Positions 6,326-50,412 of a stretch of DNA of 64,000 bases are shown here, one piece after another. The position numbers and the translations under genes are program-made. Origin of the DNA: an uncultured Alphaproteobacteria bacterium. GTDB lineage: Bacteria; Pseudomonadota; Alphaproteobacteria; Rs-D84. The DNA lies in contig CAMHTQ010000005.1 in assembly GCA_946188105.1 (NCBI GenBank), forward strand, positions 200-64,199, read 5' to 3'. Numbering within the stretch: the first letter of the stretch is position 1; each line of letters opens with the position of its first letter. The notes under the pieces were generated by a model. The model saw only the letters and a program-made list of their open reading frames with translations. It was not told where the DNA came from and made no database searches.

Positions 6326-6353
6326 TTGACAATTAAAAAATATAGTGTATATT
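6326..6353 (+). promoter_or_regulatory. sigma70-like promoter (TTGACA-16 nt-TATATT)
   Basis: Consensus -35 and near-consensus -10 about 30 nt upstream of ATG 6384. It overlaps the ORF-track start at 6345, which argues for the ATG at 6384. Confidence 0.45.
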
Positions 6354-6383
6354 TTTGTGTGTTGGACATTATGGGGGTCATTT

Positions 6384-8579
6384 ATGTTTACTGAATTAGA
6401 ACGCAAAGATATAAAAAAAATAGTTAAAAAGTATCGCGTGGCACATGATCATATTGCAGATTATTATGGTTCCAGACGTAATCATTTAATTTGCGATGAA
6501 TTAAGCAGACGTGCTGGGCATTATTTGTATGTTATGAATCACAATATGGATAAGATTACAGCCCAAGATGTCGAGTCATTGGTTTTATTAGTTGATACTT
6601 TTGATCAAATGCGTCGTGAACATGTTTTTGAAGAATTACAAAAGATTGCAGATTTTGATATAAAATTATATTTGGAAAACAGAAATCGCAGTTTGTTTAA
6701 ACGTATGTTTTCTCCAATAAATGATAAATTAAGTTGGTTGACCCCACAACAGATGAAAAAAATATGCGCAAGATATAAAAAATTATGCGATAAAATAAAT
6801 GATGGTGATATCTCTGGAAAAACTAATGATACGGCTGTGGATATTCGTAATGTTGCATATGCATATGCGCGTGGCATTGTAAAGGGTGATATCAAGGTTG
6901 CAACATGCAATTTAAAAAGTACATATGAGTATTTAACAACAATATGTTACCCAGAAATTATTGGTGATGATGCATATAAAGCAAGAGAGTTGTTAAAAGC
7001 AAAAATTCAAGAAATGACCGTTTCATCCGAAATTGAAGATTTTGTTCCTGTTCAAGATAATATACAAAAGTTAAATGAATCAGAATATCAATTGGACGAG
7101 AATGTTGAACAAGTTGATGCAGAAAAAGAATTGGCTGTGGCTGAAAATAATACAGTAACTGATAAAAAATCTAATGAAGATAGAATCAGTCGTGTTAAAC
7201 AGAAAATCGAAGAAAGAAAGCAAAAAGAAAACGAAAAAATTCGCCAATGGGCTAAACGTATGGAACAGCAAAAGGCCGAGCAAGAACAAAAAGCACGCGA
7301 AGTTGCCCAAGAAAGAGCCAAGATGGTTGCTGAAAATAAAGCTGAACGCGAACAGGCATTAAGAGAAAGAATTGAACAAATCAGAGAACAAGCCAAGCAT
7401 ATGGATGCTGAGGGTTTCAAATTGAAAGAAGAGGCTCGTAAAAAAGAAGCAAGTCAGGCTGAACAAACAAGATTGAAAGAAATAGCAAGACAAGAACGCA
7501 AAGAACGCAGACAGGAACATATTGACCATGCTAAAAAAGTTGCTGGGGATATGTCTGGCAAAGTTGCGAGTGCGTTTGCTGTGGTAAAAGGTAAATTGGC
7601 GACAAAGTGGCAAGAAAAGAAATCTGAATTAGAGACCGCAAAACGTAATCGCGAAATTATTCGTGATGCAGAACGTGCGTCAAAAGAGCATTGGAAAGAA
7701 TTAAAAAAGCAAGATAAAGAACAAAAGTTAGAACGGTTGGAAAATTTAGAAGCGGTACGTCAGGAAAAATTTGCTAATTTTGTAATGGATTCTGCGATGA
7801 AGATGTCCAATAAATTTGATTCTGTAAAAGATAAATTGGCAGCAAAGTGGCAAGAAAAGAAATCTGAATTAGAGATCGCAAAACGTAATCGCGAAATTAT
7901 TCGTGATGCAGAACGTGCGTCAAAAGAGCATTGGAAAGAATTAAAAGAACAAAATAAAAACAATAGAAACATTTTTGTACGTACTGCAACAGAAGCGGCT
8001 TTATTCTTGGTTGTATTCGGTGGAATTGCAATTTTAACTTATACAGATTTTGAAAATAAATCAGCAAATAAAGTAAATGTTAAAAAGGAAATAAAAGCAA
8101 AACCTGTGGTTCAAAAAGAGGTATCTGTTGCTGCAATTGATACAGTATATGCATCGGCTTTGAAGAATTATTATGGTTCTGCGCTGGATATTATTGCTGG
8201 CACAAATAAAAAAGCAGATGTTTTAACAAAATTAGAAAATCAAATTCAATCTGGTAATATCGAATTGGGTGATTATATATCTGCGGAACGTATTGCGTAT
8301 GCATATTTTATGTATCGTGAATATGGATTTAATATTGATATTTTAAATTTGGCTGTGAACGGTAATCAAAAATTAACAGATGCACAAATGGCAGAGTTAA
8401 ACAAGGTTATTATGGATGCGGGCGAATGTGGAACCGGTGTTCAACAGATGGCTAAACAACGTGTCGAAGCACGTGGTGGTCAAATGAGTCAACACAGTAA
8501 GTTTAAAAACGCAACCAAGCAACAACAACGTCAGCATTTGGCGAATTTAGGTTTGTTGAAAAAAGCACATGTAAAGTAA
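6384..8579 (+). CDS. large coiled-coil membrane protein (cytoplasmic N-domain, E/K/R/Q-rich coiled coil, one TM, ~190-aa C-terminal domain)
   Basis: Long uninterrupted ORF. Charged heptad-like region at aa ~250-540. TM segment AALFLVVFGGIAILTY. No family recognised. Confidence 0.7.
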   Translation: MFTELERKDIKKIVKKYRVAHDHIADYYGSRRNHLICDELSRRAGHYLYVMNHNMDKITAQDVESLVLLVDTFDQMRREHVFEELQKIADFDIKLYLENRNRSLFKRMFSPINDKLSWLTPQQMKKICARYKKLCDKINDGDISGKTNDTAVDIRNVAYAYARGIVKGDIKVATCNLKSTYEYLTTICYPEIIGDDAYKARELLKAKIQEMTVSSEIEDFVPVQDNIQKLNESEYQLDENVEQVDAEKELAVAENNTVTDKKSNEDRISRVKQKIEERKQKENEKIRQWAKRMEQQKAEQEQKAREVAQERAKMVAENKAEREQALRERIEQIREQAKHMDAEGFKLKEEARKKEASQAEQTRLKEIARQERKERRQEHIDHAKKVAGDMSGKVASAFAVVKGKLATKWQEKKSELETAKRNREIIRDAERASKEHWKELKKQDKEQKLERLENLEAVRQEKFANFVMDSAMKMSNKFDSVKDKLAAKWQEKKSELEIAKRNREIIRDAERASKEHWKELKEQNKNNRNIFVRTATEAALFLVVFGGIAILTYTDFENKSANKVNVKKEIKAKPVVQKEVSVAAIDTVYASALKNYYGSALDIIAGTNKKADVLTKLENQIQSGNIELGDYISAERIAYAYFMYREYGFNIDILNLAVNGNQKLTDAQMAELNKVIMDAGECGTGVQQMAKQRVEARGGQMSQHSKFKNATKQQQRQHLANLGLLKKAHVK
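7584..7706 (+). repeat. intragenic direct repeat, copy 1 (~120 nt)
   Basis: Near-identical to 7824-7946 (offset 240 bp, in frame). Includes a ~69-nt exact block starting CGCAAAACGTAATCGCGAAATT. Encodes KWQEKKSELExAKRNREIIRDAERASKEHWKELK. Confidence 0.9.
7824..7946 (+). repeat. intragenic direct repeat, copy 2
   Basis: See copy 1. I count about five mismatches. Confidence 0.9.
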
Positions 8580-15487: not shown

Positions 15488-15910
15488 ATGTCAGATAATA
15501 AAGAAATAATTTTGTCGGATTTGGATGCAACACATGCATGGGCCAGGGATTTTGCAAAAACCTTGCGTGCACCGGTAACTGTTGCTTTGCATGGTGATTT
15601 GGGAATGGGGAAATCTGAAATTGCCAGAACAATTATTCGAACATTGCGTGGAGAAAATACAGTTGTCCCCAGTCCAACATTTACTATTGTGCAAAATTAT
15701 GACGGAATTTCTCACTTTGATTTATACAGAATTACTGATGCATCTGAATTGGTCGAGGTTGGATTACCATACGCAATTCAAAATGATATCACTTTGATTG
15801 AATGGCCTGATGTTGCAAAAGGTATGTTGCCAGACAATACAATTCATATTTATATGTCTTCGTGTGGGGCAGATTGTTGTCCATCAGGACGCAAGATTTG
15901 TATAAAATAA
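15488..15910 (+). CDS. tsaE: tRNA t6A biosynthesis ATPase TsaE
   Basis: P-loop GDLGMGKSEIAR, SPTFTIVQNY, HFDLYR motifs. 140 aa. Confidence 0.85.
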   Translation: MSDNKEIILSDLDATHAWARDFAKTLRAPVTVALHGDLGMGKSEIARTIIRTLRGENTVVPSPTFTIVQNYDGISHFDLYRITDASELVEVGLPYAIQNDITLIEWPDVAKGMLPDNTIHIYMSSCGADCCPSGRKICIK

Positions 15911-15914
15911 AATT

Positions 15915-17699
15915 TTATTTATTTGTCTTTTTTAATAAACTTTGCACCGCTAATGGAAAATCATGGGATTTGGCAAGATAGGAACCGCTGACTAATAAAT
16001 CGGCACCAGCCTCCCAACATTTTTGTGCGGTTTGTGGATTTATTCCACCATCAACAGAAATTATGTATTTTAATCCATGCTTTTTACGAGTAACAGCCAA
16101 AGCCAAAATTTTATTTAATACATCAGGATTAAATGATTGACCAGCCGCCCCAGGTTTTACACCCATTATTAAAATCTCGTCAATATTTTTTAAAACAGGT
16201 ACCAATGCAGATACGGGTGTTTCTGGATTCAATGCAATTCCAGCACGTTTGCCACATGCACGAATATTGCGTAATGCATCGTTAATGCCAGTTGTGTTTT
16301 CTGATAATATTATTGTGTCGGCACCCGCGGCAAGGGCATTATTTGACCAGAATACAGCGTTTTCTGTCATTAAATGAACGTGCAGGTGACTTTTAGTATT
16401 TGCACGAATTTGTTTTAATTCAGGAATACCCCCATATATTTCATCAACATATAAACCATCCATAATATCAACGTGGATTGTCGAGATTCCTGCGGACTCG
16501 AACATTTTGTATGTTAGGGGACTTAACATATTGAAGCATAATGTTGATGGAGCAATTGGAATAAATTTTGGTTTTTGTTTTTTGGGTTTACGTATAAATA
16601 ATTTTTTTATTTTATCTATATATGCCTGATGTTTTTCCATGCGTGCAATGTATGCCTCGCGTGCAGGTTTTTCACAATCCAGAACATAATTTGATAATGC
16701 GGTAATTGTTGCATCGGCATGATAATTTTCTGCGGGTAATCCAAATACATTTTCGATAACATCAACAACACCGTTTATTTGAGTGCCACCACCAGTAATG
16801 ATAATTTTGTTTGGCATATATTCAGATACAGCCGCCAGAGACATTTCTTTTATTTTACCAATAATTTCTGTAACACGTGGAACAACAATATCGTTAACAT
16901 CGCCACGTGTAAAATCATATGCTGTATCGGCTGGAACCAAATGATCCATAGAACGTGGTATTAAATTGGCGGTCATACGTTTTATTCTTTCTGCTTCGTC
17001 AAAATCCAAATTTAATGCACGTGTTAAATCCAATGTTACATTGGACATACCCATTTCTAGTTTTTCATGCCAACATACACCGTTATTATTCCATATTGAG
17101 AGCGATGTAAATTCAGCACCCAAATCAATGAACAATATTGTTTGATTGGGTTTGCGTATAGTCATGCTTTGTAAATATTGTGGATCAAACAGGCCATTAT
17201 ATTGTATGTGTGCCTTGTGCAATAAGGATACAACCTCGTTCAAACGGGCGTTTTCATAGCAAATAACACCGAATTCTGATATTAATTGATGGTCGATACA
17301 TCCAACAGGATTTGGTGTTTCCCGAGCCGATGGGATATCATATTTTAATGGAATTATATGAATAGGTGAAAACCCAGTTGGAATGGCAATTTTGGATATC
17401 TGGGCGCGTATATCTGTTTCGGTTATTTTATGTTCGCTGTTCCAGACGGTTGTTTGATAAGGATTCAAAAATTCAGATTTTCCGAAATTTCCAGTTATAT
17501 ATGCAGAATCAAAATGTGTTTTTAATTCTTCTTCCAGGTTTTGAATTACCGACCGTATGGCGAATTGTTGGTTAAAGTTTTCGCACATCGCAGTTGCCGA
17601 TGCGGCAATTTTTCCAGCACAAATTCTGTGTGCGATTCCACGGACGCAACTGGTTCCGATATCAAGACATAAAAAACGAGGGTCAAAAAAATAATTCAT
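15915..17699 (-). CDS. ftsA: cell-division protein FtsA fused in frame to ribulose-phosphate 3-epimerase
   Basis: aa 1-350 show actin-fold motifs (LDIGTSCVRG, FIDLGAEFT, IITGGGTQINGVVDVIENVFGLP), directly after ftsQ. aa 354-380 form a basic amphipathic linker. aa 381-594 are Rpe-like (IAPS, HVDIMDG, HVHLM, VKPGAAGQSF, SVDGGI, AGADLLVSGS). Confidence 0.75.
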   Translation of the reverse strand: MNYFFDPRFLCLDIGTSCVRGIAHRICAGKIAASATAMCENFNQQFAIRSVIQNLEEELKTHFDSAYITGNFGKSEFLNPYQTTVWNSEHKITETDIRAQISKIAIPTGFSPIHIIPLKYDIPSARETPNPVGCIDHQLISEFGVICYENARLNEVVSLLHKAHIQYNGLFDPQYLQSMTIRKPNQTILFIDLGAEFTSLSIWNNNGVCWHEKLEMGMSNVTLDLTRALNLDFDEAERIKRMTANLIPRSMDHLVPADTAYDFTRGDVNDIVVPRVTEIIGKIKEMSLAAVSEYMPNKIIITGGGTQINGVVDVIENVFGLPAENYHADATITALSNYVLDCEKPAREAYIARMEKHQAYIDKIKKLFIRKPKKQKPKFIPIAPSTLCFNMLSPLTYKMFESAGISTIHVDIMDGLYVDEIYGGIPELKQIRANTKSHLHVHLMTENAVFWSNNALAAGADTIILSENTTGINDALRNIRACGKRAGIALNPETPVSALVPVLKNIDEILIMGVKPGAAGQSFNPDVLNKILALAVTRKKHGLKYIISVDGGINPQTAQKCWEAGADLLVSGSYLAKSHDFPLAVQSLLKKTNK

Positions 17700-17702
17700 T
17701 TT

Positions 17703-18392
17703 TTACCTGACTAGGATACGGGCGGAATCACGCATATCTATGACGCGGATATCACGTCCCAATATATTATGTTTTTTATTTATTGTTATTAAACTGGCAA
17801 TTGCATGAGTGAAATCATCCTCGGGCAGTTTGATTGTAATGCCACCAGTTGTATGGATGTTCCAACGACGATTTTCAACCCATTCTATGTAATCAATGTC
17901 GGTCAGCATGTCGTTTGCAGCCGTTGTGATTTCGGTCATGTCGGTTGGGACCGGGCCACGGAATAGCAGGGCGGATGTTGGACGTTCTGGGGACGGATTT
18001 TTCACAATTGTTCCATCGTCAGATAATGGGAAATAATTTACCCCATCGGTCCAGGTTGCGACAAAATGGTGAAATGATACCTTGATTGCCAGATTGCCGT
18101 TTGGCAAGCGGCGGACAGCAGAGTTTTTTACACCCGGAACGGATAGAATACTGTCATTTAATTTATCCAGATTTATTGAATAAAACTTGGTGTTTTTGGC
18201 AAAAGATGTGGCGGCCGATAATGCGGTCATATCCTTGTTTTCAATATCAGTTGTGAAATATATTTTGTGTAACATGGCGGTTTTGCCGTAGCCCATGCTG
18301 ACCATAATTATTCGCGAGGCAAAATAGACCGCCAGAACAATGGCAACCACAAAAGATAACCAAAACCAGATAGAACGTCTCATGTTTGGCAT
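17703..18392 (-). CDS. ftsQ: cell-division protein FtsQ
   Basis: N-terminal TM plus POTRA-like region (INLDKLNDSILSVPGVKNSAVRRLPNGNLAIKV). Stop lies 3 nt before the ftsA start. Confidence 0.8.
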   Translation of the reverse strand: MPNMRRSIWFWLSFVVAIVLAVYFASRIIMVSMGYGKTAMLHKIYFTTDIENKDMTALSAATSFAKNTKFYSINLDKLNDSILSVPGVKNSAVRRLPNGNLAIKVSFHHFVATWTDGVNYFPLSDDGTIVKNPSPERPTSALLFRGPVPTDMTEITTAANDMLTDIDYIEWVENRRWNIHTTGGITIKLPEDDFTHAIASLITINKKHNILGRDIRVIDMRDSARILVR

Positions 18393-18437
18393 TATAACAT
18401 ATTTTTTGCTAATAAGAAAGTAAAGAGCAAAGATTTT

Positions 18438-18818
18438 TTACATTGAACGCAATAAATAACCACGTCTGAGCATGCACCGACGGTATGCACCGACGGTTTT
18501 TGATGCCTTGTTACGTGGAACGGACATCAAAGAACGTTGACCGACATCCTTGTACTCGTTCGACTGAAATGTTACCCAAATTCCATCCCAATCAGGCATT
18601 TGGTCGTTCTGGTTCGGGGAAAGCAGACGAGAAATACGGGAACGGGGGGTATAATCATGCGCCCGAATACCCAGGCATGATTTGTGATCACGAACGAATT
18701 GTTCGGTTGTTACAGCCTCGTTTTCCCAGTTTAATATGGTTGCATCATCGATACTGCCGCGATTGGCAGATGCACAAGCGGTTAAAGCAAGTAATAATGC
18801 AATTTGTTTTATTTTCAT
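18438..18818 (-). CDS. lipoprotein (126 aa)
   Basis: MKIKQIALLLALTAC lipobox. Confidence 0.6.
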   Translation of the reverse strand: MKIKQIALLLALTACASANRGSIDDATILNWENEAVTTEQFVRDHKSCLGIRAHDYTPRSRISRLLSPNQNDQMPDWDGIWVTFQSNEYKDVGQRSLMSVPRNKASKTVGAYRRCMLRRGYLLRSM

Positions 18819-18892
18819 ATTTTATATTATAATTTATTTGCGTTCCGGTGGCAATAGTTTTTATAATGTAAAAAAAGAGGAAGGGAAAAGTT

Positions 18893-19213: not shown

Positions 19214-19240
19214 TATGTTAGGCATAATATGGAGAGTAAG

Positions 19241-20554
19241 ATGAAAAAACTTTTATTATGGTCTTTGGTTATAGCTTTGTGCGCTGGGTGCCAAAATGCA
19301 AAAAATCAAAAACCACAATATGATACAATCGAAATAGTTGAAAATACCGTCATAGATGAAAAATCTGTGCCTATTTTCCCGAAAAAAGCGGCATTGACAA
19401 CGGATACTGCCCAACGGTTTTCTGTAGAATTGCCTATGCGTTGTACGGTTGATTGGAATAATCAATCTGTGGTTTCTGTGGTGCCAGAGGAAAAAATTGA
19501 AATTGTTCGTTTGGAAATGGGGGATGCATTACCAGAATTGGCTGTTGAACAATATAAATTCAAAGATGTTACTGTTGCGGCTGCATTAAACAAATTGTTG
19601 GACGGAACAGATGTTTCTGTGGTTACGGATGAACAATTGGTTGAAAAGATTTCTGGCGAGGTTGCGTCTGGAACATTAAGTGATACGGTTGAATTGATTT
19701 CAAAAATGGGACGTGCATATTATTCTTATGATGCTATAACTGCCGAGATTCATTTAAAACATCGTGCAAAATGGATGATAAAAATGCCAAAAGACCAGGC
19801 GATTGTGATGGCTTTGTTGGATGCTATGCATGGTGCCGATGTTCGTAATTTGTTGGTTAACTGGCAAGATAATACGGTCGTTTTTGAAGGAAATTACCAG
19901 ACCGAGCGCGAGGTTTCCAGAATCATCGCTGATATCGCTTCGAAAAAATATATGATTGCATGGGATATGGATGTTTATCGTGTTTATCCAAAGACAGATA
20001 ATCCTATTATTTGGATGAATTTATTACCAGCATTTGGAAAGAATAATATCAAAATGTCTATACCTGGTGTTGTTGGTCGTGCTTTGGTCGTGGGACCTGA
20101 AATTAACACAAAAACATTGCAAGAATTTTTATCTCAGCAATCTAATGTTGTTTTAATTTCACAGGGAACATTTTCTATACCAAATGGTTGGCAATCCAGA
20201 TTTGATATCGGTCAATGTAGTAAAGAAGATAGATTGGAAACAGATTTGATTGTTGGTGCAACCGGTAAATACGGTGATTATGGTGGGTATCAAAAAATAG
20301 ATGCCAAGATTGTTTTAACAACCAGTCGTGGCGAATTGACATCATTTAATATTCCATCCAGTATTGGTGATAATTATGTGATTATTGGTATCCCAACACA
20401 TTCATTTGTTACAACACCTGAAACACTGATTAGCCCATTTGCGGAATTGGTTGTGTTTATGTCGCCCAGAATTGTTTCTGTGGTAGATAGAAATTCTGAA
20501 AAAAGCAATACATTGCTGGTTGGTGATGATGTGCGTGAATTGTTAAACAAGTAA
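19241..20554 (+). CDS. secretin-like outer-membrane lipoprotein (putative liposecretin)
   Basis: Lipobox LVIALCAGC; SD GGAGAG before ATG 19241. Ordered secretin-like segments: KDVTVAAALNKLLDGTDVSV; NTVVFEGNYQTEREVSRIIADI + MIAWDMDVYRV; LISQGTFSIPNGWQSRFDIGQ; DNYVIIGI; C-terminal ELVVFMSPRIV. Confidence 0.5.
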   Translation: MKKLLLWSLVIALCAGCQNAKNQKPQYDTIEIVENTVIDEKSVPIFPKKAALTTDTAQRFSVELPMRCTVDWNNQSVVSVVPEEKIEIVRLEMGDALPELAVEQYKFKDVTVAAALNKLLDGTDVSVVTDEQLVEKISGEVASGTLSDTVELISKMGRAYYSYDAITAEIHLKHRAKWMIKMPKDQAIVMALLDAMHGADVRNLLVNWQDNTVVFEGNYQTEREVSRIIADIASKKYMIAWDMDVYRVYPKTDNPIIWMNLLPAFGKNNIKMSIPGVVGRALVVGPEINTKTLQEFLSQQSNVVLISQGTFSIPNGWQSRFDIGQCSKEDRLETDLIVGATGKYGDYGGYQKIDAKIVLTTSRGELTSFNIPSSIGDNYVIIGIPTHSFVTTPETLISPFAELVVFMSPRIVSVVDRNSEKSNTLLVGDDVRELLNK

Positions 20555-24591: not shown

Positions 24592-25557
24592 ATGAGAGGG
24601 AACAGCAAATTTTTTGCAGTTGTGTATATGCGTGCATTTTTTGCGGTTGTTTGTTTGCTTTTTTTTAATATTGGTTATGTGAATGCTTCTGAATTAAATG
24701 ATGCTTTGCGTGCGACATATGTGGCATGTGTTGGTATAGATGATGAATTGTCTGATTTAAAAAAAATGGCTGGAATAAATACAGCGGTGACTGCGGTTGG
24801 AACTGCGGCTGGGGCTGGGGCAACCATTGTTGGTATTGTAAAAGCAAATAAGGATGCCAAGGCTAAGGAAAAATTTGATAATTATATGAATAGCAAACCA
24901 GTACAAGTCATGAATAAAAATTCTGTTGATGCATTTTTTGCGGCGTGGGAGAAATACGAGTGGGGACAAGGTGATGCGGCTGAATTTCAAAAATTACGCA
25001 AACAATCAAAAACTTTGGGAAATTGGCGGACAGGGTTGATAGCAGGTAATGCGGCGACTAATATTGCAGGTGCAATAATTGCTGGAAATAACAAAGTTGA
25101 TAAAGATTTGAAAACCCAGATAAATGATTGCAAGGTGGCTGTTAACAATTTGAAAAATGCAACCTTTCAAGCACGTATAAGTGGCGAGGATATATCCGAA
25201 GCAAATGAAATTATTGCTGTGTGTGGCGAATATGATTATATAGATTCTGATGTGTCCAAGATAAATGGTAAAGCCAAGGGTGCTTTTGTTTCAAGTGTTG
25301 TTGGTGCGGCCACAGGTGTTGCTGGAACTGTGACATCAGCTATTGCAAATAGTGAAAAGGTTCGTAAAGATGAAACTGTTAATACAAAAACTGGTGAAGA
25401 TTGGCAAGCAGAGAAAAATTGGAATACTGCGGCGAATGTATTGGCAGGAACATCAACAGTGGCATCTGGTGTTGCGACTGTATTTAATGCGATGCAGATA
25501 AGTGCGATAAAGAAAGTCGCTGATGTTGCATCAAAATGCACAGGAGTTTTGAAATGA
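24592..25557 (+). CDS. secreted Gly/Ala-zipper protein (alternative start ATG 24628)
   Basis: Signal peptide MRAFFAVVCLLFFNIGYVNA. Four Gly/Ala/Thr-rich small-residue helices (e.g. AVTAVGTAAGAGATIVGIV, GLIAGNAATNIAGAIIAG). The stop overlaps the next ATG. Confidence 0.6.
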   Translation: MRGNSKFFAVVYMRAFFAVVCLLFFNIGYVNASELNDALRATYVACVGIDDELSDLKKMAGINTAVTAVGTAAGAGATIVGIVKANKDAKAKEKFDNYMNSKPVQVMNKNSVDAFFAAWEKYEWGQGDAAEFQKLRKQSKTLGNWRTGLIAGNAATNIAGAIIAGNNKVDKDLKTQINDCKVAVNNLKNATFQARISGEDISEANEIIAVCGEYDYIDSDVSKINGKAKGAFVSSVVGAATGVAGTVTSAIANSEKVRKDETVNTKTGEDWQAEKNWNTAANVLAGTSTVASGVATVFNAMQISAIKKVADVASKCTGVLK

Positions 25558-28500
25558 AAAAAATATTCTGTGCATTGTTTGGCGTTTTTGTGTTTGTATC
25601 GGCATTCGCTGGCGTAGATGGCGATGGTGGTACTTATAAAAACGTTTCGTCTGAAATGTGGATTTCCAGATATTATATTGAAAATTTAAAAAAGAGTGCT
25701 GGTAGTGGAGGAAATTTAGCTGATGATGTTGTTGATGCTATGTTAGCTAAATATGATGAATTAGCAGCATCAGAAGATATAGTAATGAAAACATCTGTTG
25801 GAAATCAGTATTTTACTGTTTTAGATGGAACAGAACCATTAACATTGCAAGATTTAAATGCAATTTGTATTGCTGGTGGATTTACTGAAAAGGAAGCATG
25901 TCGTACAAATGTTATAAATCCAATATATACCAATATAAACAGAGTGTCTTATCATAATGTTTGTAAAGGTGAAATTACTGGCGGGACAAATCATTGTGTT
26001 GATGATGTTTTTGTAAAAGAATATGAATATGATGAAATAACAAAAGGCGAATGGCATAATGCCAGACAAGAAGTAGCAGATGGAAAAGATCCACATATTA
26101 ATTTCCATAATTCTGGTTTGGTTATCAATGGTGATAATTATAGGTATGATCAAATAGAGACAAAAACAGTTACATCAAAAAATCCATATGCTCAAGATGT
26201 AGAAGTATCTGAATGGACTGCATATGGTTTTGCACTAGAGTATGCTAGATTGCATGGACATAGAGTGGTTTGTAGTTCAAATGTAGAATTTAATTGGATA
26301 AATTGTACCAGTGTTGATAATCAACATTTTTATACGTTCCGGTTTAAAGATACATATGGTGGATCTGATACTTCAATAACAGATGGTTTTAGAGAAAAGA
26401 ATGTAAAGAATATAGCCCGTGGAATATGTGCGTTGTTTGGAATAAATGCTTATGAGGGTTTTCATATAGTTTGTGAAAAGCAGTGCGATAATGAAATACA
26501 AGATGTTAGTAAAAAATTTGCTATGAATGCACATTCTGGTGAGTATTATACTGGATTTGCAAATACGCATTATGGGTGTGCAATAGATTCAATTGGTGAT
26601 GTATATAATGATGTAAAATTAAAAACTTATCCTAGGTATGAACATATGTCTACGGCTTTTTCAAAAGTTCAAGCAAGGTTAGAGCCGACTTTAATAAATG
26701 TGTTAAAATTGTATATAAAATCCCAAGGTATTGAAATAAAATCTTTTACTTGTGCTTATAATACTATTAATTCAAAGGCTGATTATGTTTTACCGTGTAA
26801 ATTAAATGGTACGGATGTTGATTTTTTGTTTGATGATTTATATGAAACTGCAGAGTATGCTAAAAAAGCGGGTTTTGCGGGAATGTCATGTTTAACCGCA
26901 TCGGCGACTTTGGGTAAAGTATCAAATAAAAAATTTACTACAAAATTTGATGGGAAGTCATGTATTGGGCCGGACAAGGAAATATGTGATGCAATGAATA
27001 ATATTGTCCCTGGGGGAACAGAATGGGATGCGGATTCAGATAGATGTGTGTTAAAAGCGGCAGAAAAAGCGGCAAATATAAATTTTGTTACAACATTGAT
27101 TATAGATGGTGTTGCGTTGGCTGTAACTGTAGTATCTGGCGCTGGATTGGTTGTTATTATTGTTACTGCTGTAAGTTCTGTGGGGGTTACTTTGGGTTCA
27201 AAATGGTTAGAAGATTTTGAAAGCACGTTACCAAATGAATTCGCAAAAGAATTTGTTAAAAAAGCATCTGCTTGTAACATACCAGAAAAAATTGAGTATG
27301 ATAAATGTAGCGCAATACAAAAAAAATGTGCAAAAGATGCGTTGATAGAATTTGATAAATCTCTGGGATATATTATAGATGGAACCAGTACACAAACAGG
27401 TGAATATATAGGGCAGGCCGCAGAAACTTTGCTTCAATGTGTAACAGAGGCAGATTTGGAAGATATAGAAATAAAATCAACTACACGGCCAGAGATGGAT
27501 TTTGTAGAGGCGTCTAGTGCTGTATTGATGGTTATGGGGTTTGCAAGCCCAAGTGGGTCAACTAAATTTACTATGTTTACTAAATTTCACAGATTGACGA
27601 AATGGCTAAATAAAATAAGTTATACATCTAAATTAAAGAAATTTAAACTTGGTGAAAACCTTTATCGTATTAAATTAACAGGAAAAATACCAACGGAGAA
27701 ATTAAATAGTTATATTGAGAAAATGAAAAAAAATGGTTTTTCTGTTATGTTGGAAACAGATGCTAAAACTGGGCAGCAATTTTTTAGAGTTTTTGAAACG
27801 GAATTAGATATTAATTCTTTAAAATTAAAAGCAAGTCAAAGTTTTGATAATTATTTAGATGAGTTTTTAAAAACAGGGCGGAGTAATGGACTTCCAGTTA
27901 GTCGTTTAACAAAAGAACAATGGGGGCAATTAAGTAAGCATTTAGAAGGTCAGGGAGTAGAGTTATATGAGGATGTAATGAATGGAAATCGTGTTATGCG
28001 GTTTAGAAAAATTAGTTCATTAGATATTAATTCTTTAAAATTAAAAGCAAGTCAAAATTTTGATAGATATTTGGCTGAGGCAATGTCGTCGAATCCAACT
28101 TTTTATATGCTACCAGCAGGACGTTTAACTGAAAGTGAATGGATGCAATTAAATGCATTTCTTAAAAATCAGGGGGTCGAGTTGGTTGATTCTACTAGAA
28201 ATGGTGAAAAATATAAGATATTTAAACTACTTGGTTCCAAAGGTGAGGAAAATTGGATATTTTCAAAAATATATAATGATATGCCTGATGAAATTTTAAA
28301 CGCAAAATTAAAATATATTTATGAACACAGTAATGGAGATATTGTTTCTGCGGTTAATGCATTAAAAGCATCAGGAATTTATGATGCGCAGAAAGTATCA
28401 GAACTTGCGCAGGATTTAGGGAAAGAAGCAGTGATACGTATTCGGAATAGTGGTTCGAATATAATAGATAGGATGAAAAGATATAAATATATGACAAATG

Positions 28501-28892
28501 AAGAAAAAAAGGTTTTGGCGGGTGATTTGCATGAAATAATTACTACTGAACGACGGAATCATGTTGGAAATACCATTGTTAATTATGATTTTGAATCAAG
28601 TTGGAGTTGGCAGGCTGGTAGTGGTACAAGTAGTAATGGTTTTAGATTTGTTTATGGCTTAAAAGGGGATTCTATTGAGGGGTTAGTTTCTATCGTGTTT
28701 CATGAAAACACACATGCCCTTCAAAAACTTGGAAAATCTGCTTTACCAAAACCTGTTGCAGATTGGAATGCAAGGTATTATGCAGATCCTAATAATTTTC
28801 CAAAATTATATTATGATAATGTTATTGAAATAGAGTCTTATCAAATAGGTAATGAGGCGGCAAAATATGTTATTAGGGCATTAGGGGTGTAA
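25554..28892 (+). CDS. large exported multidomain protein with C-terminal HExxH (zincin-like) module (1112 aa)
   Basis: ATGA overlap with the upstream gene. Signal peptide MKKIFCALFGVFVFVSAFA. Cys-rich N-terminal half; ~40-aa bilobed hydrophobic segment; three ~72-aa repeats; FHENTHALQ at 28698-28721. Confidence 0.7.
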   Translation: MKKIFCALFGVFVFVSAFAGVDGDGGTYKNVSSEMWISRYYIENLKKSAGSGGNLADDVVDAMLAKYDELAASEDIVMKTSVGNQYFTVLDGTEPLTLQDLNAICIAGGFTEKEACRTNVINPIYTNINRVSYHNVCKGEITGGTNHCVDDVFVKEYEYDEITKGEWHNARQEVADGKDPHINFHNSGLVINGDNYRYDQIETKTVTSKNPYAQDVEVSEWTAYGFALEYARLHGHRVVCSSNVEFNWINCTSVDNQHFYTFRFKDTYGGSDTSITDGFREKNVKNIARGICALFGINAYEGFHIVCEKQCDNEIQDVSKKFAMNAHSGEYYTGFANTHYGCAIDSIGDVYNDVKLKTYPRYEHMSTAFSKVQARLEPTLINVLKLYIKSQGIEIKSFTCAYNTINSKADYVLPCKLNGTDVDFLFDDLYETAEYAKKAGFAGMSCLTASATLGKVSNKKFTTKFDGKSCIGPDKEICDAMNNIVPGGTEWDADSDRCVLKAAEKAANINFVTTLIIDGVALAVTVVSGAGLVVIIVTAVSSVGVTLGSKWLEDFESTLPNEFAKEFVKKASACNIPEKIEYDKCSAIQKKCAKDALIEFDKSLGYIIDGTSTQTGEYIGQAAETLLQCVTEADLEDIEIKSTTRPEMDFVEASSAVLMVMGFASPSGSTKFTMFTKFHRLTKWLNKISYTSKLKKFKLGENLYRIKLTGKIPTEKLNSYIEKMKKNGFSVMLETDAKTGQQFFRVFETELDINSLKLKASQSFDNYLDEFLKTGRSNGLPVSRLTKEQWGQLSKHLEGQGVELYEDVMNGNRVMRFRKISSLDINSLKLKASQNFDRYLAEAMSSNPTFYMLPAGRLTESEWMQLNAFLKNQGVELVDSTRNGEKYKIFKLLGSKGEENWIFSKIYNDMPDEILNAKLKYIYEHSNGDIVSAVNALKASGIYDAQKVSELAQDLGKEAVIRIRNSGSNIIDRMKRYKYMTNEEKKVLAGDLHEIITTERRNHVGNTIVNYDFESSWSWQAGSGTSSNGFRFVYGLKGDSIEGLVSIVFHENTHALQKLGKSALPKPVADWNARYYADPNNFPKLYYDNVIEIESYQIGNEAAKYVIRALGV

Positions 28893-40918: not shown

Positions 40919-42499
40919 ATGAGTATGAATAGTATGTTAGAAACAGCGGTCCAGCAATGGCCAGAGAACCTGTTTTTAGTACGTGAGGGGATTACGTATT
41001 CTGCGTTTATGGAAATGGTAAAAGCACGTGCGGTAACGCTGATGGAACACGGCATTGGTGTCGGGGATACAGTCGGTGTGTTATCACATAATATTCCTCA
41101 ATTTCCGCTCACATTGTTTGCAATATGGTATATCGGGGCGCGGGCCTTGATGTTGGATACAAATTTGACACCATTTGAGTATGATAATATGGCGAAAGTT
41201 GCTGGATGTAAATATGTCTGTGCAGAAACGTCTTTTTTCTATAAAACAGATGTGTTCAAATTTATCGAGATTACCGCCAAAGACGGCAATCCAAATCCAA
41301 TGTTGCGTCCGTACGAGTTCAAAGATGATGATATTGCGACTTTGTCTTTTACATCTGGTTCAACCGGCAATCCAAAGGTTGTGCCATTGACGCACTATAA
41401 TTTAACAGAGTGTGCAAATTCATTAGAAGATATGTCTGAATATTTTGGTTCTGGGGATGTCATGTATGGCTTTTTACCATTGTATCATATATTCGGGTTT
41501 TCTATTGGAATTTTGGCAACTGTACATTTTGGTGCAGGAATTGTGTTGCAGCCAACGGTTAATCCGAAATACATTTTGGATGATTTTAAAAAATTCCGTC
41601 CACATGTTATTCCGGCTGTTCCACGTTTGTGGGAATTATTTAGAAATAAAATCATGGATACTTTAAAAGCACAAAAAAAGTGGCGTATTGTGGAATTTAT
41701 TTTACGCAATCGTGAACGTATCTCGGATATGGGATTGGGATTTTTTGTGCGTAAAGTCCAAGAACCTATTTTGGATATTTTCGGTGGACGTGTGAGATTG
41801 CTGATTGCGGGGGGTGCGGCAACCAAGCCCGAGGTTGAAACTTTTTATGAAAGTTTAGGATTGGCATTTATCCAAGGATATGGTTTAACAGAAACAGTTG
41901 GACCAATCTGTATTTCTAAACCAAATAAAAAGCGTATGGCTTTTTCTGTGGGTGCGCCAACAACAAATAACGAATGTGAAATTCGTGATAAAGATGAAAA
42001 TGGTGTTGGTGTTTTGTGGTTGCGTGGTCACCAAGTATTTGGCGGTTATATGAATAACGATGATGCCAATAAAGAATGTTTTGATGATAAAGGATTCTTT
42101 AATACTGGGGACATGATGTATATGGACAAAAATGGCGAATTACATTTTGCTGGTCGTAAAAAACAAATCATTGTTTTGGATTCTGGTAAAAATGTTTATC
42201 CCGATGAATTAGAGGCATTGTTCTTGGATATTCCAGGGGTAAAAAATGTTGCTGTATTTGAACACAAGGTAAAAGGTAAAACTGTTGCATACGGTGTATT
42301 TAGCGTTGATGCGGACATGACAATGGAAAAGTTGGCTGATGCAGTTGCCGAGGCAAATAAAAAGGTTGCATCATATAAATGGGTTACCCATTTTGCGATG
42401 ACAACAGACGATTTGCCAATGACATCTACACAGAAAATAAAACATCATATTGTTCGCAAGAATTTGATTGATGGTAAATATCCAATAAGACATGAATAA
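40919..42499 (+). CDS. AMP-dependent synthetase/ligase (long-chain acyl-CoA synthetase, FAA1/COG1022-like), paralog 1
   Basis: SFTSGSTGNPKVVPLTH, GYGLTET, TGD, GRKKQIIVLDSGKNVYPDELE, TSTQKIKH adenylation motifs. Confidence 0.85.
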   Translation: MSMNSMLETAVQQWPENLFLVREGITYSAFMEMVKARAVTLMEHGIGVGDTVGVLSHNIPQFPLTLFAIWYIGARALMLDTNLTPFEYDNMAKVAGCKYVCAETSFFYKTDVFKFIEITAKDGNPNPMLRPYEFKDDDIATLSFTSGSTGNPKVVPLTHYNLTECANSLEDMSEYFGSGDVMYGFLPLYHIFGFSIGILATVHFGAGIVLQPTVNPKYILDDFKKFRPHVIPAVPRLWELFRNKIMDTLKAQKKWRIVEFILRNRERISDMGLGFFVRKVQEPILDIFGGRVRLLIAGGAATKPEVETFYESLGLAFIQGYGLTETVGPICISKPNKKRMAFSVGAPTTNNECEIRDKDENGVGVLWLRGHQVFGGYMNNDDANKECFDDKGFFNTGDMMYMDKNGELHFAGRKKQIIVLDSGKNVYPDELEALFLDIPGVKNVAVFEHKVKGKTVAYGVFSVDADMTMEKLADAVAEANKKVASYKWVTHFAMTTDDLPMTSTQKIKHHIVRKNLIDGKYPIRHE

Positions 42500-42511
42500 A
42501 AAGGACATAAT

Positions 42512-44092
42512 ATGACTTTATATGATTTGTTAGAAGAAAATATCAAGAAAGATCCTAAATTAGTTTTCTTGGTGCGCGAAAATATTACTTTTGAAGATTT
42601 TCCAAAGTATATCAAGGCACGTGCCGCTACATTGGCAAAAGAGGGTATAAAGGCCGGTGATGTTGTTGGTTTGTTGTCACATAATCTACCACAATTTGTG
42701 TACACTTTGTTCGCAATTTGGTATCTGGGTGGCAAGGTTTTATTGTTGGATACAAACTTGACATCTATTGAATATGAAAATATGACAACACTTACAGATT
42801 GTAAATTCGTTGTTGCTGAAAAATCTTTCTTTTATAAAACCAAGAACTTTAAGTTCATTGATATAGAAACAGAAGATAAAGATAGTGGTGAAGATATTAA
42901 ACGTTACAAGGTCAAAGATGATGATATTGCAACATTATCATTTACATCGGGTTCAACTGGAACACCAAAGATTGTGCCATTGACACATAAAAATTTGGTT
43001 TCTTGTTCAGAAAGTTTGGAAAGTTTGAGCATATTCTTGCGTCATGGCGAGGTTATGTATGCTTTCTTGCCTTTGTATCACGTGTTTGGTTTTGCTGTGG
43101 GATTTTTGGCACCAATGCATTTTGGTATGGGAATCTTGTTGCAATCGACAATCAATCCAAATGCAATTTTGCAAGATTTTGCTACATATAAACCACAAGT
43201 TATTCCTGCGGTTCCAAAATTGTTCGAAATATTCCGCAAGAAAATTATTGATGGCGTCAAGGCAAAGAAAAAATGGTGGTTGGTATCATTTATTATGAAA
43301 CACCAGAAGGGTTTGCGTATGATTGGGTTGGGCAAATTGGTTGATAAAGTTTTAGGTCAAATCAATTCTGTATTTGGTGGTCGTGTACGTTGCATGGTTG
43401 CAGGTGGTGCGGCGACCAAGCCAGAGGTTGAAAATTTCTATAATAAATTAGGAGTTGCCTTTGTTCAGGGTTATGGTATGACCGAAACCGTTGGACCAAT
43501 CTGTTGTTCTAAACCATTGAAAAAACGTGTGCCATTTGCATTTGGGGCACCATTAGGTCAATGTTGTTGCGAAATTCGTAATGCAGATGAAAATGGTATT
43601 GGTATGTTGTGGGTCAAAGGCGACCAGGTGTTTGGTGGCTATTTGAATAATGACGAGGCCAATAAAGAATGTTTTGATAAAAACGGATTCTTCTGCACTG
43701 GTGATTTGGTATCCATTGATAAAAATGGTGAATATCACTTTGCGGGGAGAAAGAAACAAGTGATTGTTTTGGATTCTGGTAAAAATGTTTATCCTGATGA
43801 ATTAGAAGGATTATTCATTGAAATCCCAGGGGTAAAAAATGTCGCTGTGTTTGAACACGAGGTCAAAGGTAAAACTGTTGCATATGGTGTATTCAGTGTA
43901 GATCCAGACATGACATTAGAAAAACTGGGTGCGGAAATTGCAGAAAAGAATAAAAAGGTTGCATCGTATAAATGGGTTACTCATTTTGCTATGACAACCG
44001 ATGACTTGCCTGTAACCAGTACGCAAAAAGTAAAACATCATGTTGTACGGAAATATTTGATGGATGGTAAATATATCGAAAAAGGTCTGTAA
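42512..44092 (+). CDS. AMP-dependent synthetase/ligase, paralog 2
   Basis: Same motif set, collinear with paralog 1 over the full length. 12-nt spacer after paralog 1. Confidence 0.85.
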   Translation: MTLYDLLEENIKKDPKLVFLVRENITFEDFPKYIKARAATLAKEGIKAGDVVGLLSHNLPQFVYTLFAIWYLGGKVLLLDTNLTSIEYENMTTLTDCKFVVAEKSFFYKTKNFKFIDIETEDKDSGEDIKRYKVKDDDIATLSFTSGSTGTPKIVPLTHKNLVSCSESLESLSIFLRHGEVMYAFLPLYHVFGFAVGFLAPMHFGMGILLQSTINPNAILQDFATYKPQVIPAVPKLFEIFRKKIIDGVKAKKKWWLVSFIMKHQKGLRMIGLGKLVDKVLGQINSVFGGRVRCMVAGGAATKPEVENFYNKLGVAFVQGYGMTETVGPICCSKPLKKRVPFAFGAPLGQCCCEIRNADENGIGMLWVKGDQVFGGYLNNDEANKECFDKNGFFCTGDLVSIDKNGEYHFAGRKKQVIVLDSGKNVYPDELEGLFIEIPGVKNVAVFEHEVKGKTVAYGVFSVDPDMTLEKLGAEIAEKNKKVASYKWVTHFAMTTDDLPVTSTQKVKHHVVRKYLMDGKYIEKGL

Positions 44093-44094
44093 GC

Positions 44095-45669
44095 ATGAAT
44101 ATGTACCAGTTCTTTGAACAGACAATGGAAAAGTGTCCTGATACACTTTTCCTTGTCCGAGAAAATATAAAGTTTGCGGATTTTCCAAAATTGGTCAAGG
44201 CGCGTGCCACAACACTTAAAAATGCAGGCGTGGTTGCCGGTCAAACGGTTGGTGTGTTGGCACATAATATTCCAGAATTTATTATCACTTTGTTTGCTAT
44301 TTGGTATCTGGGTGGACGTGTTCTGTTGTTGGATACAAATTTAACACAAACAGAATATGATAATATGACTAAACTTACATGTTGCGAGTTTGTCGTTGCC
44401 GAGGAATCTTTTTTCTATGATGCAAAAGGTTTTAAGTTCTTTGATATTCAAACCAAAGATAACGACGTGGATGAGGATTTAATGCCATACCCGTTGGATG
44501 CAAATGATATTGCAACATTATCATTTACATCTGGGTCAACTGGAACACCAAAGATTGTACCACTGACACATTTTAATTTAATAGAGTGTGCAAATTCGTT
44601 TGATGATTTTAACGAGTGGTTTGAAAAGGGTGGGGTTCTGTATGGATTTTTGCCTCTGTACCATATATTTGGCTTTGCGGCAGGATTCTTGGCACCGTTG
44701 CATTTCCAAATGGGAATTTTATTGCAACCTGCAATAAATCCAAAATTGATTTTGGCTGATTTTAAAGAATACAGACCACATGTTATTCCATCTGTTCCAA
44801 AAATGTGGGAATTGTTCCGCAAGAAAATTATTGAAGAAATCAAGGCACAGAAAAAATGGTGGTTGGCATCGTTTATATTGAAAAATCAAACATGGTTAAA
44901 GAAAATTGGTTTGGGATTTTTGGTTCGCAAACTTCAAAATGCTGTCAAGGCGGTGTTTGGTGGTCGTGTGCAGTTGATGATTGCAGGTGGGGCGGCAACC
45001 AAGCCCGAGGTTGAAACATTTTATAACCAATTAGGAATCGCATTTATCCAAGGTTATGGTATGACGGAAACGGTGGGACCATTTTGTGGTTCGCGTCCGT
45101 TGAAAAAACGTATTCCATTTGCGTTTGGAAAACCACTGGGGGCAAATGAATGTGAAATTCGTGAAAAAGATGCGTCTGGTATTGGTATGTTGTGGGTTCG
45201 TGGACATCAGGTGTTTGGCGGTTATATGAATAATGACGAAGCAAACAAAGAATGTTTTGATGAACGTGGATTTTTCAAAACAGGTGATTTGGTGTTCATG
45301 GATAAAAATGGTGAATTGCATTTTGCAGGTCGTAAAAAACAAGTGATTGTTTTGGATTCTGGTAAAAATGTTTATCCTGATGAATTAGAAGCATTATTTA
45401 TGGATATACCGGGTGTTAAAAATGTTGCCGTATTTGAACATGTTGTGGGTGGTAAAACCGTTGCATATGGTGTGTTTTCAGTAGAGCCAGATATGACCGC
45501 GGAAAAATTGGCGGATGCAGTTGCCCAGGCAAATAAAAAGGTTGCTTCATATAAATGGGTTACACATTTTGCAATGACAACCGATGATTTGCCAATGACA
45601 TCTACGCAAAAGGTTAAACATTTTATGGTTAAACAAAATTTGATAGACGGTAAATATACAGAGGTATAA
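44095..45669 (+). CDS. AMP-dependent synthetase/ligase, paralog 3
   Basis: Same motif set. ATG 2 nt after the paralog 2 stop. Confidence 0.85.
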   Translation: MNMYQFFEQTMEKCPDTLFLVRENIKFADFPKLVKARATTLKNAGVVAGQTVGVLAHNIPEFIITLFAIWYLGGRVLLLDTNLTQTEYDNMTKLTCCEFVVAEESFFYDAKGFKFFDIQTKDNDVDEDLMPYPLDANDIATLSFTSGSTGTPKIVPLTHFNLIECANSFDDFNEWFEKGGVLYGFLPLYHIFGFAAGFLAPLHFQMGILLQPAINPKLILADFKEYRPHVIPSVPKMWELFRKKIIEEIKAQKKWWLASFILKNQTWLKKIGLGFLVRKLQNAVKAVFGGRVQLMIAGGAATKPEVETFYNQLGIAFIQGYGMTETVGPFCGSRPLKKRIPFAFGKPLGANECEIREKDASGIGMLWVRGHQVFGGYMNNDEANKECFDERGFFKTGDLVFMDKNGELHFAGRKKQVIVLDSGKNVYPDELEALFMDIPGVKNVAVFEHVVGGKTVAYGVFSVEPDMTAEKLADAVAQANKKVASYKWVTHFAMTTDDLPMTSTQKVKHFMVKQNLIDGKYTEV

Positions 45670-50358: not shown

Positions 50359-50412
50359 ATTTATACTTTTATTTATTGGCATTTTATGATAAAATTATGT
50401 GGAAGAGAGAAT

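Follow-up and report, generated by a model that had tools for sequence, protein, structure and literature searches.

An old, clade-wide in-frame fusion of an FtsA-like protein to a ribulose-phosphate 3-epimerase barrel in Candidatus Enterousia and the order Rs-D84

The bacterial division ring is tethered to the membrane by FtsA, a conserved actin-like protein whose C-terminal amphipathic helix, the membrane-targeting sequence (MTS), is regarded as the working end of the tether. Several metabolic enzymes control the division ring, among them UgtP in Bacillus subtilis, OpgH in Escherichia coli and KidO and GdhZ in Caulobacter. Ribulose-phosphate 3-epimerase (Rpe), an enzyme of the pentose-phosphate pathway, typically self-associates as a dimer or a hexamer. 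Here we describe ftsA::rpe, a gene in which an FtsA-like protein and an Rpe barrel are encoded by a single open reading frame (ORF). It lies in a 64-kb stretch of DNA from an Rs-D84 alphaproteobacterium; this whole stretch is called the window, and gene coordinates are positions within it.

The fusion resembles UgtP, OpgH, KidO and GdhZ in that a central-metabolism enzyme fold would be brought to the early divisome, and Caulobacter is likewise alphaproteobacterial. Those proteins are separate, reversible FtsZ binders, whereas in the fusion the enzyme is covalent in FtsA throughout the clade. With canonical FtsA (Thermotoga maritima 1e4g and 4a2a, Staphylococcus aureus 3wqt, Vibrio maritimus 7q6f and E. 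coli 7q6d), the N-terminal half has in common the actin (ASKHA) fold and SHS2 1C subdomain, the 'DIGTS' phosphate-1 and 'GGG' adenosine motifs, a gene position directly after ftsQ and an amphipathic helix about 20 residues past the core that resembles the terminal MTS. It differs in having a core about 45 residues shorter, a phosphate-2 motif reading 'DLGAE' instead of 'DIGGG', and a gene not followed by the usual downstream ftsZ in any locus. The MTS-like helix is internal and is followed by a 215-residue enzyme domain, and the protein thus lacks the terminal MTS that marks members of the family. The next-best structural and sequence relative of this half is PilM (2ych, 5eou), which has a similar 'D-x-G-A' phosphate-2 motif, but the structural match to it is lower and the fusion gene has ftsQ rather than pilNOPQ as its context. 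The C-terminal half shares with the Rpe proteins of Streptococcus pyogenes (2fli), Synechocystis (1tqj) and potato (1rpx) the full barrel, the catalytic His/Asp/His/Asp set, the Met cushion and the beta-1 Ser, but is not a free protein of 220 residues as these are.

An initial annotation of this DNA had proposed an in-frame fusion of FtsA to Rpe starting 3 nt after ftsQ. This was borne out: a single ORF of 594 aa with both Pfam domains was found in the window, and the fusion was present in 81/81 loci. The motifs quoted in that annotation (LDIGTSCVRG, FIDLGAEFT, IITGGGTQINGVVDVIENVFGLP, HVDIMDG, HVHLM, SVDGGI and VKPGAAGQSF) all occur in the translation. It omitted the minus-strand orientation of ftsA::rpe; its description was otherwise accurate. 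The gene and its parts are as follows.

15915-17699, minus strand: ftsA::rpe fusion, one ATG-started ORF of 594 aa plus stop, containing both domains.
16665-17699, minus strand: FtsA-like actin-fold (ASKHA) core, aa 1-345, assigned by PF14450, a sub-cutoff TIGR01174 match, Foldseek and invariant motif residues.
16590-16664, minus strand: helical linker, aa 346-370, ending in the amphipathic MTS-like helix A359-R370 'AYIDKIKKLFIR' (nt 16590-16625), assigned by the structural model, hydrophobic moment and conservation.
16563-16592, minus strand: polybasic disordered spacer, aa 370-379 'RKPKKQKPKF', from the MTS-like helix to the barrel, assigned by predicted disorder and net charge.
15918-16562, minus strand: Rpe (beta/alpha)8 barrel, aa 380-594, assigned by Pfam, NCBIfam, the 2fli alignment, Foldseek and conservation.

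A word-indexed search of 5.8 billion proteins returned 775 matches, of which the best 120 clusters were examined. These were 54-78 % identical to the query and nearly all about 590 aa long (two were shorter fragments), and both domains were found in all of them. One genome per GTDB species was then scanned, which gave 351 candidate genomes; 80 loci were kept and, with the window, made up the set of 81. All 80 match the query over essentially its full length, and each of the 81 loci proved on six-frame analysis to contain a single intact fused ORF, 588-604 aa long. The initial annotation had singled out the base calls at 16550-16650 for verification. In three independent public metagenome runs (X1, X3 and X4, one of them from a bioreactor and the other two with a source that is unstated or coded), contigs cross this interval without gaps and differ by substitutions alone. 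The strain substitutions listed within the gene number 36, of which 32 fall in the third codon position and 4 in the first. Because the 81 loci are intact, the contigs are gap-free and the substitutions lie mostly in third positions, the fusion frame was judged to be genuine, with purifying selection acting across the junction. A sequencing or assembly artefact was rejected on the same intact orthologs and independent contigs, and we regard the existence of the fusion as virtually certain. A strain in another metagenome run, X2, carries an extra T in the T-run at 17698-17702, which makes the gap between ftsQ and the fusion 4 nt and leaves the frames unaffected.

Two further points raised by the initial annotation were whether relatives carry the same fusion or separate ftsA and rpe genes, and whether the fusion arose by recent loss of a stop codon. 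Relatives have the same architecture in all 81 loci. An exhaustive phmmer search with aa 1-375 alone against 1.84 billion representatives found only 16 proteins below 1e-30, the complete ones all about 570-594 aa, and ordinary FtsAs of about 400-420 aa surfaced only at 23-29 % identity. Among fused relatives identity falls to about 28 %, and the gene still occupies the ftsQ or ftsI-ftsQ slot. Nine of ten distant long matches contained Rpe together with PF14450 or SHS2_FTSA, or were truncated copies of the fusion, and the tenth, P0129, showed only Rpe at that threshold. Two short matches that might be read as unfused, P0121 (487 aa) and P0126 (430 aa), are truncated or frameshifted fusion copies. 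The deep-branching P0144 (locus L081; 623 aa, 33 % identical) lies in the order ftsI-ftsQ-fusion-rpmB and scores 62.8 bits with PF14450 and 44.4 bits with SHS2_FTSA. P0290, on a chromosome of 716,531 bp, has synteny identical to that of the window, and the closed or near-closed genomes OZ007020.1 (958,618 bp) and OZ246409.1 (716,531 bp) carry the fusion. Recent stop-codon loss was rejected, because the genes are fused in 81/81 loci, in more than 120 protein clusters and in relatives down to about 28-30 % identity. The fusion is old and clade-wide in Candidatus Enterousia and the order Rs-D84. Across the 81 species, the median identity to the window protein was 49 % in the FtsA half and 66 % in the Rpe half, and the neighbouring FtsQ, TsaE and UvrB gave 54 %, 71 % and 83 %; by these values the FtsA half and FtsQ evolve at similar rates, and the barrel changes more slowly.

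The N-terminal half contains a phosphate-1 site (D13/G15), a phosphate-2 site (D192/G194), an adenosine site (G303-G305) and an SHS2-type 1C subdomain at about aa 65-160. All 81 species have D13, G15, D192, G194, G303 and G304, and 78 of them also have G305. Pfam FtsA (PF14450) matches aa 190-327 with 45.0 bits against a gathering score of 31.8 (E = 1.7e-11). SHS2_FTSA matches aa 87-146 below its threshold (20.1 bits; gathering score 25.4), and the relatives P0142 (33.2 bits) and P0144 score above it. Identity to ordinary FtsA is only 23-29 %, and the half aligns with canonical FtsA end to end. In a Foldseek search of the PDB, the 19 best matches were FtsA crystal structures (E about 1e-25), with target template modelling (TM) scores of 0.68-0.75; PilM structures ranked below them, at 0.57-0.62. 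A PilM identity was rejected on this ranking, on a TIGR01175 score of 30.8 against 133 and on the lack of pil genes nearby. Since ftsQ or ftsI-ftsQ precedes it there, this half fills the ftsA slot in every sampled branch. These results make it highly probable that the N-terminal half is an FtsA ortholog.

The key residues of the C-terminal half are Ser385, His409, Asp411, His442, Asp550, Met413/444/512, the phosphate loop P516-Q521 (PGAAGQ) and G572-S573. Pfam Ribul_P_3_epim (PF00834) matches aa 397-575 with 158.7 bits against a cutoff of 21.1 (E = 1.6e-46), and the NCBIfam rpe subfamily model NF004076 gives 191.2 bits against a cutoff of 165; the cutoff of the rpe equivalog TIGR01163 is not reached (167.4 against 212.6 bits). 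S. pyogenes Rpe (2fli) aligns with the barrel in HMMER at 139 bits and places H409, D411, H442 and D550 on H34, D36, H67 and D176, which we take to be the metal ligands and the acid/base pair. Foldseek superposes the two with a target TM of 0.90, a root-mean-square deviation of 1.6 Å and 38 % identity. S385, H409, D411, M413, D414, H442, M444 and M512 are invariant in the 81 species, as are P516, G517, G520, Q521, D550, G551, G552, G572 and S573. The claim that the metal and catalytic residues of Rpe are intact was thereby upheld. The phosphate loop is atypical, PGAAGQ in place of the usual PGFGGQ, and because of this and the sub-cutoff TIGR01163 score the identity of the substrate is taken by inference from the family. 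Judged from its residues, the Rpe half is likely to be active as an epimerase in this organism.

Other long Rpe proteins were observed that are unrelated to the fusion. P0306 joins Rpe to thiamine pyrophosphokinase, and P0313 joins it to a xylose-isomerase-like TIM barrel. P0340 combines PASTA repeats with Rpe; part of its barrel looks out of frame, and it may be an artefact. P0309 has a hydrophobic, probably membrane-spanning C-terminal tail, and P0305 and P0311 have unannotated N-terminal extensions. None of these six proteins contains a hidden FtsA-like half.

An AlphaFold2 model of the fusion, built with 17 homologs, had a mean predicted local distance difference test score (pLDDT) of 88.5 and a predicted TM score (pTM) of 0.59. 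It consists of an actin-like body, a continuous long helix at aa 330-368, disorder at aa 370-377, where pLDDT is below 50, and the barrel from aa 382. The basic amphipathic stretch that the initial annotation had noticed at the junction was recovered as QAYIDKIKKLFIRKPKKQKPKF (aa 358-379, nt 16563-16628), with an MTS-like moment. The best 14-residue hydrophobic moment of the linker is 0.65, equal to the family median; the protein-wide 95th percentile is 0.51, and genuine C-terminal FtsA MTSs give 0.59-0.68 by the same measure. MAFFT had put the canonical terminal MTSs inside the Rpe region, and the comparison was therefore made by distance from the end of the core and by hydrophobic moment. 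About 20 residues separate the end of the actin core from the MTS-like helix, the spacing seen for the canonical MTS. The linker has the consensus 'AYIARxxRxxxxxxKIxKxFxRxxxKxKxKF-IPIxPSTL'. An aromatic core is kept, with 'WVQIKNWFEKHL' ('WF' core) in P0144 and 'YIDKIKKLFIRK' in the window, as compared with 'LTKIVAWFKDNI' and 'IKKIINWIKNNF' in canonical FtsAs, and F368 is at least 90 % conserved. Over the 16 residues that follow the helix, the net charge has a median of +7 and varies from +4 to +9 among the 81 species; the spacer is poorly conserved in sequence. By these features the internal helix may well still bind the membrane, a reading we favour somewhat.

Some distant lineages have lost residues of one or both active sites. 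In the fused proteins P0172, P0185 and P0163 the Rpe catalytic residues are kept, and the phosphate-1 Asp is changed to Tyr and the phosphate-2 Asp to Asn or His; because of these changes, the FtsA half may have ceased to bind ATP on more than one occasion. The P0134 lineage (L085:10001-11770; L086, L087 and L088), a very AT-rich sister lineage, has a guanine-plus-cytosine (GC) content of 25.6 % at the locus and 19.9 % in the gene. Its FtsA half carries D13S, D192N and GGG changed to SGS, and its Rpe half carries H409Y, D411T, D550C and PGAAGQ changed to SGAEIE, so that three of the four metal or catalytic residues are lost. The gene is an ortholog, with the order lipoprotein-ftsQ-fusion-tsaE-uvrB-asmA-aspS as in the window, and all ten full-length variants are intact. 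The ratio of non-synonymous to synonymous substitution rates (dN/dS; Nei-Gojobori, three strains) was 0.31-0.33 overall, 0.37-0.38 in the FtsA-like half and 0.20-0.28 in the Rpe-like half, as compared with 0.31-0.34 in ftsQ and 0.10-0.14 in uvrB; the full-length fusion is kept there under purifying selection. Because a dead domain of 210 residues is kept in a strongly AT-biased locus, a non-catalytic role of the barrel is suggested, and we place such a role at about an even chance. Retention of the dead barrel also suggests that a purely neutral fusion is hard to reconcile with this lineage.

The genes and sites around ftsA::rpe in the window are as follows.

17703-18392, minus strand: ftsQ (Pfam FtsQ_DivIB_C, E = 7.5e-12), co-oriented with the fusion ORF and separated from it by a 3-nt gap.
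18438-18818, minus strand: putative lipoprotein gene of 126 aa, conserved, with no Pfam family above threshold, preceding ftsQ.
18826-18854, minus strand: best sigma-70-like promoter match TTGCCA-17-TATAAT (11 of 12 positions), 5' of the lipoprotein-ftsQ-ftsA::rpe series; a consensus match only, which does not imply function.
15488-15910, plus strand: tsaE (Pfam TsaE, E = 7.3e-30), convergent, its stop 4 nt from the fusion stop.

The lipoprotein gene probably opens an operon with ftsQ and ftsA::rpe. It is co-oriented upstream in most of the 81 loci and occurs in distant lineages as well, and ftsQ lies directly 5' of the fusion in nearly all loci, with gaps mostly of 0-18 nt. The total of promoter-like sites in the region was near the expectation from shuffled sequence. 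Past tsaE, the window contains uvrB, an AsmA-like gene and then aspS; tsaE and uvrB are convergent and 3' of the fusion in about 55 loci. Because the convergent tsaE stop is 4 nt away, nothing, and in particular no ftsZ, follows the fusion. The FtsZ signature GGGTG[ST]G was found neither in the window nor in any flank of the 80 related loci (10 kb on each side). Judged from these flanks, ftsZ is unlinked from ftsA in the Enterousia/Rs-D84 clade, in the sense of non-adjacency, which does not imply absence from the genome.

The division cluster in the window (15488-18854) and in the 80 related loci is reduced to lipoprotein-ftsQ-ftsA::rpe. The ends of tsaE and the fusion are 4 nt apart in the window (15910-15915) and overlap by 8 nt in the P0134 lineage (L085:11763-11770), and terminators therefore have no room between them. 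Elsewhere in the window, three tandem paralogous AMP-binding genes, acyl-CoA-synthetase-like and of 524-526 aa each, occupy 40919-45669, and the distant P0144 genome has two similar tandem AMP-binding genes near the fusion (L081:573-4053). Large ORFs without a Pfam family lie at 25536-28892 (1118 aa), 6345-8579 (744 aa), 50386-52584 (732 aa) and 19229-20554 (441 aa). The 441-aa ORF and an adjoining ORF of 106 aa are conserved beside a LolCE-like permease in the distant relatives L083 and L085.

The records that carry the fusion are Candidatus Enterousia species and metagenome-assembled genomes deposited as 'Alphaproteobacteria bacterium' and 'Rickettsiales bacterium', from sheep, deer, yak, horse, chicken and human gut and from digesters. 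One contig deposited as Bacteroides fragilis (L053, CAVGNU010000015.1) contains the fusion at 55 % identity in its usual context and is probably mis-binned or mislabelled. Enterousia is placed in the GTDB order Rs-D84, with genomes of 0.75-1.0 Mb (2025 mSphere, PMC12306168). It lacks amino-acid, nucleotide and lipid biosynthesis, has an incomplete glycolysis, retains the non-oxidative pentose-phosphate genes except transaldolase and depends on imported intermediates (PMC12306168). That study (PMC12306168) makes no mention of FtsA or of any fusion; the Rpe counted in it is presumably the ftsA::rpe gene. The initial annotation had called the architecture undescribed. This stands for the literature, as full-text searches found no description of an FtsA-Rpe fusion, and does not stand for the databases, where hundreds of copies are deposited and named only 'ribulose-phosphate 3-epimerase'. 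What is new is the covalent FtsA-Rpe architecture with its internal MTS-like helix; each half comes from, or close to, a known family.

Our interpretation is as follows. The gene would be the ftsA of a Candidatus Enterousia-like bacterium, from a group of gut and rumen Alphaproteobacteria whose genomes do not exceed 1 Mb. In the simplest history, the ftsA stop codon would have been lost just after the MTS, and a short spacer would have been read through into an adjacent rpe. The product would be a single chain of about 66 kDa made of two modules that fold independently, the first a divergent but complete FtsA actin fold with intact nucleotide motifs in the ftsQ-ftsA slot, and the second a catalytically competent Rpe barrel. 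Both chemistries would be retained in Enterousia. The former C-terminal tail of FtsA would form the junction, its MTS now internal and the stop codon and intergenic gap replaced by a polybasic spacer of 10 residues. Helix and basic patch would place the protein against the membrane's inner face and keep the barrel at the membrane and divisome. The barrel would be part of FtsA function, its self-association as a dimer or hexamer clustering FtsA besides any chemistry. Taken whole, as an ancient clade-wide fusion that yields one bifunctional protein with an internal membrane helix and a barrel that takes part in FtsA function, this interpretation is in our view evenly poised. A narrower version, in which the barrel was recruited as an integral structural or regulatory divisome module whose self-association at the membrane organises FtsA filaments or gates them by pentose-phosphate supply, and the fusion was kept for that non-catalytic role even in the lineage whose ATP and epimerase sites have both decayed, is put forward tentatively.

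Several points weigh against this interpretation. In streamlined genomes a gene fusion can last as a neutral change. A bulky addition at the C-terminus usually disturbs a terminal amphipathic anchor of the kind found in FtsA and MinD. Comparable hydrophobic moments are also reached by amphipathic helices on the surface of the globular domains, and membrane binding by the internal helix is for that reason suggestive only. The pTM of 0.59 defines no FtsA-Rpe interface. The N-terminal half misses the cutoff of the ftsA equivalog TIGR01174 (104.2 against 175.85 bits) and is slightly shortened by deletions in 1A/1C and 2B, and binding of FtsZ by this half is therefore not assured. The barrel dN/dS in the P0134 lineage comes from 6 synonymous and 5-7 non-synonymous changes. 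RNA runs from a study that shares one of the DNA runs gave only spurious matches of about 20 nt to the fusion locus. Blastp with each half for a second ftsA or rpe covered ORFs of at least 60 aa in the window and the 80 loci, about 1.5 Mb of mostly syntenic sequence, and found only the fusion itself; the barrel is probably the only Rpe of the cell, its sole-copy status extending by inference beyond these loci.

The best-surviving rival is a frozen accident, in which the stop was lost beside rpe during streamlining, each half went on with its own task (division or pentose-phosphate epimerisation) and the link has no function, with re-splitting requiring a new start codon and ribosome-binding site. 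We consider this possible, as a minority view. It agrees with the strong reduction and gene density of these genomes (PMC12306168) and the 4-nt gap to the convergent tsaE, with a spacer that is short, disordered and poorly conserved, with a model that shows no fixed inter-domain contact at a pTM of 0.59, and with the retention by each half of its own catalytic or ligand-binding residues. The unrelated Rpe fusions, such as Rpe-thiamine pyrophosphokinase and PASTA-Rpe, apparently reflect operon neighbours. However, the P0134 lineage, with 26 % GC and extreme reduction, keeps a dead barrel of 210 residues at a dN/dS of about 0.2-0.3, no fission was seen in hundreds of species at about 28-78 % identity, and both the MTS-like helix and the basicity of the spacer are conserved.

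A metabolic checkpoint, in which the barrel serves mainly to sense ribulose-5-phosphate or xylulose-5-phosphate and couples divisome assembly to pentose-phosphate supply, as a covalent counterpart of the enzymes that regulate division, is unlikely. UgtP, OpgH and KidO/GdhZ provide a precedent for it, and the substrate-binding residues are strictly conserved in Enterousia, which relies on imported intermediates (PMC12306168). E. coli pentose-phosphate mutants, including rpe, are small, with a Z-ring frequency uncoupled from growth rate (PMC5825171), which is a physiological and not a physical link. Loss of the ligand and metal site in the P0134 lineage speaks against a conserved sensing role, and no interface that could relay ligand binding is seen in the model.

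That the ORF yields two proteins, an FtsA with a terminal MTS and a free Rpe, through internal initiation or proteolysis of the linker, is very improbable. The linker is disordered and rich in Lys and Arg and could be accessible to proteases; cleavage would restore a canonical C-terminal MTS; and in 42 of 77 orthologs the codon immediately preceding 'PSTL' is ATG or TTG. The window has no start codon at that position. The initial annotation had suggested translation of Rpe from the ATG of M354, which does start at nt 16640 as it stated, but among the orthologs M354 is present only in the window protein, and no conserved start codon ahead of barrel strand beta-1 was found among them; a separate Rpe from M354 was rejected for these reasons. 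The sole universal in-frame ATG is M391, downstream of the essential Ser385. A promoter and terminator scan detected no promoter-like site above chance 5' of the Rpe half, whereas a Shine-Dalgarno regular expression had no power, as it found no such sequence even at true starts.

Finally, it is extremely unlikely that the N-terminal half is not divisional but another ASKHA module, PilM-like or a sugar-kinase-like partner of Rpe, in a fusion that would be purely metabolic or related to pili: the low identity to canonical FtsA, the missed TIGR01174 cutoff, weak PilM_2 and MreB Pfam matches and a 'DLGAE' motif that is PilM-like and unlike 'DIGGG' would fit such a module, but FtsA structures outrank PilM (TM 0.70-0.75 against 0.57-0.62), an SHS2 1C subdomain and an FtsA-type tail helix are present, ftsQ is immediately upstream in nearly all loci (ftsI-ftsQ in P0144), the deep-branching P0144 is clearly FtsA by its PF14450 and SHS2 scores, and no pilN/O/P/Q or sugar-kinase context was found in the neighbourhoods examined.

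The presence of 215 residues after the helix across a whole order challenges the notion that the FtsA helix must be terminal. In the fusion, nature would have joined central carbon metabolism to cell division covalently; hitherto the two have been known to be linked only through reversible moonlighting interactions. Because annotation pipelines name the fusion 'ribulose-phosphate 3-epimerase', these reduced genomes will probably be scored as lacking FtsA, and a pentose-phosphate step is credited to what is a divisome protein. The P0134 lineage, in which both active sites are dead, offers a natural experiment that separates structural from catalytic roles. If the barrel does serve as a divisome module, the fusion would provide the first natural example of an FtsA with a covalently attached central-metabolism enzyme fold, and of one that works with an internal membrane-targeting helix.

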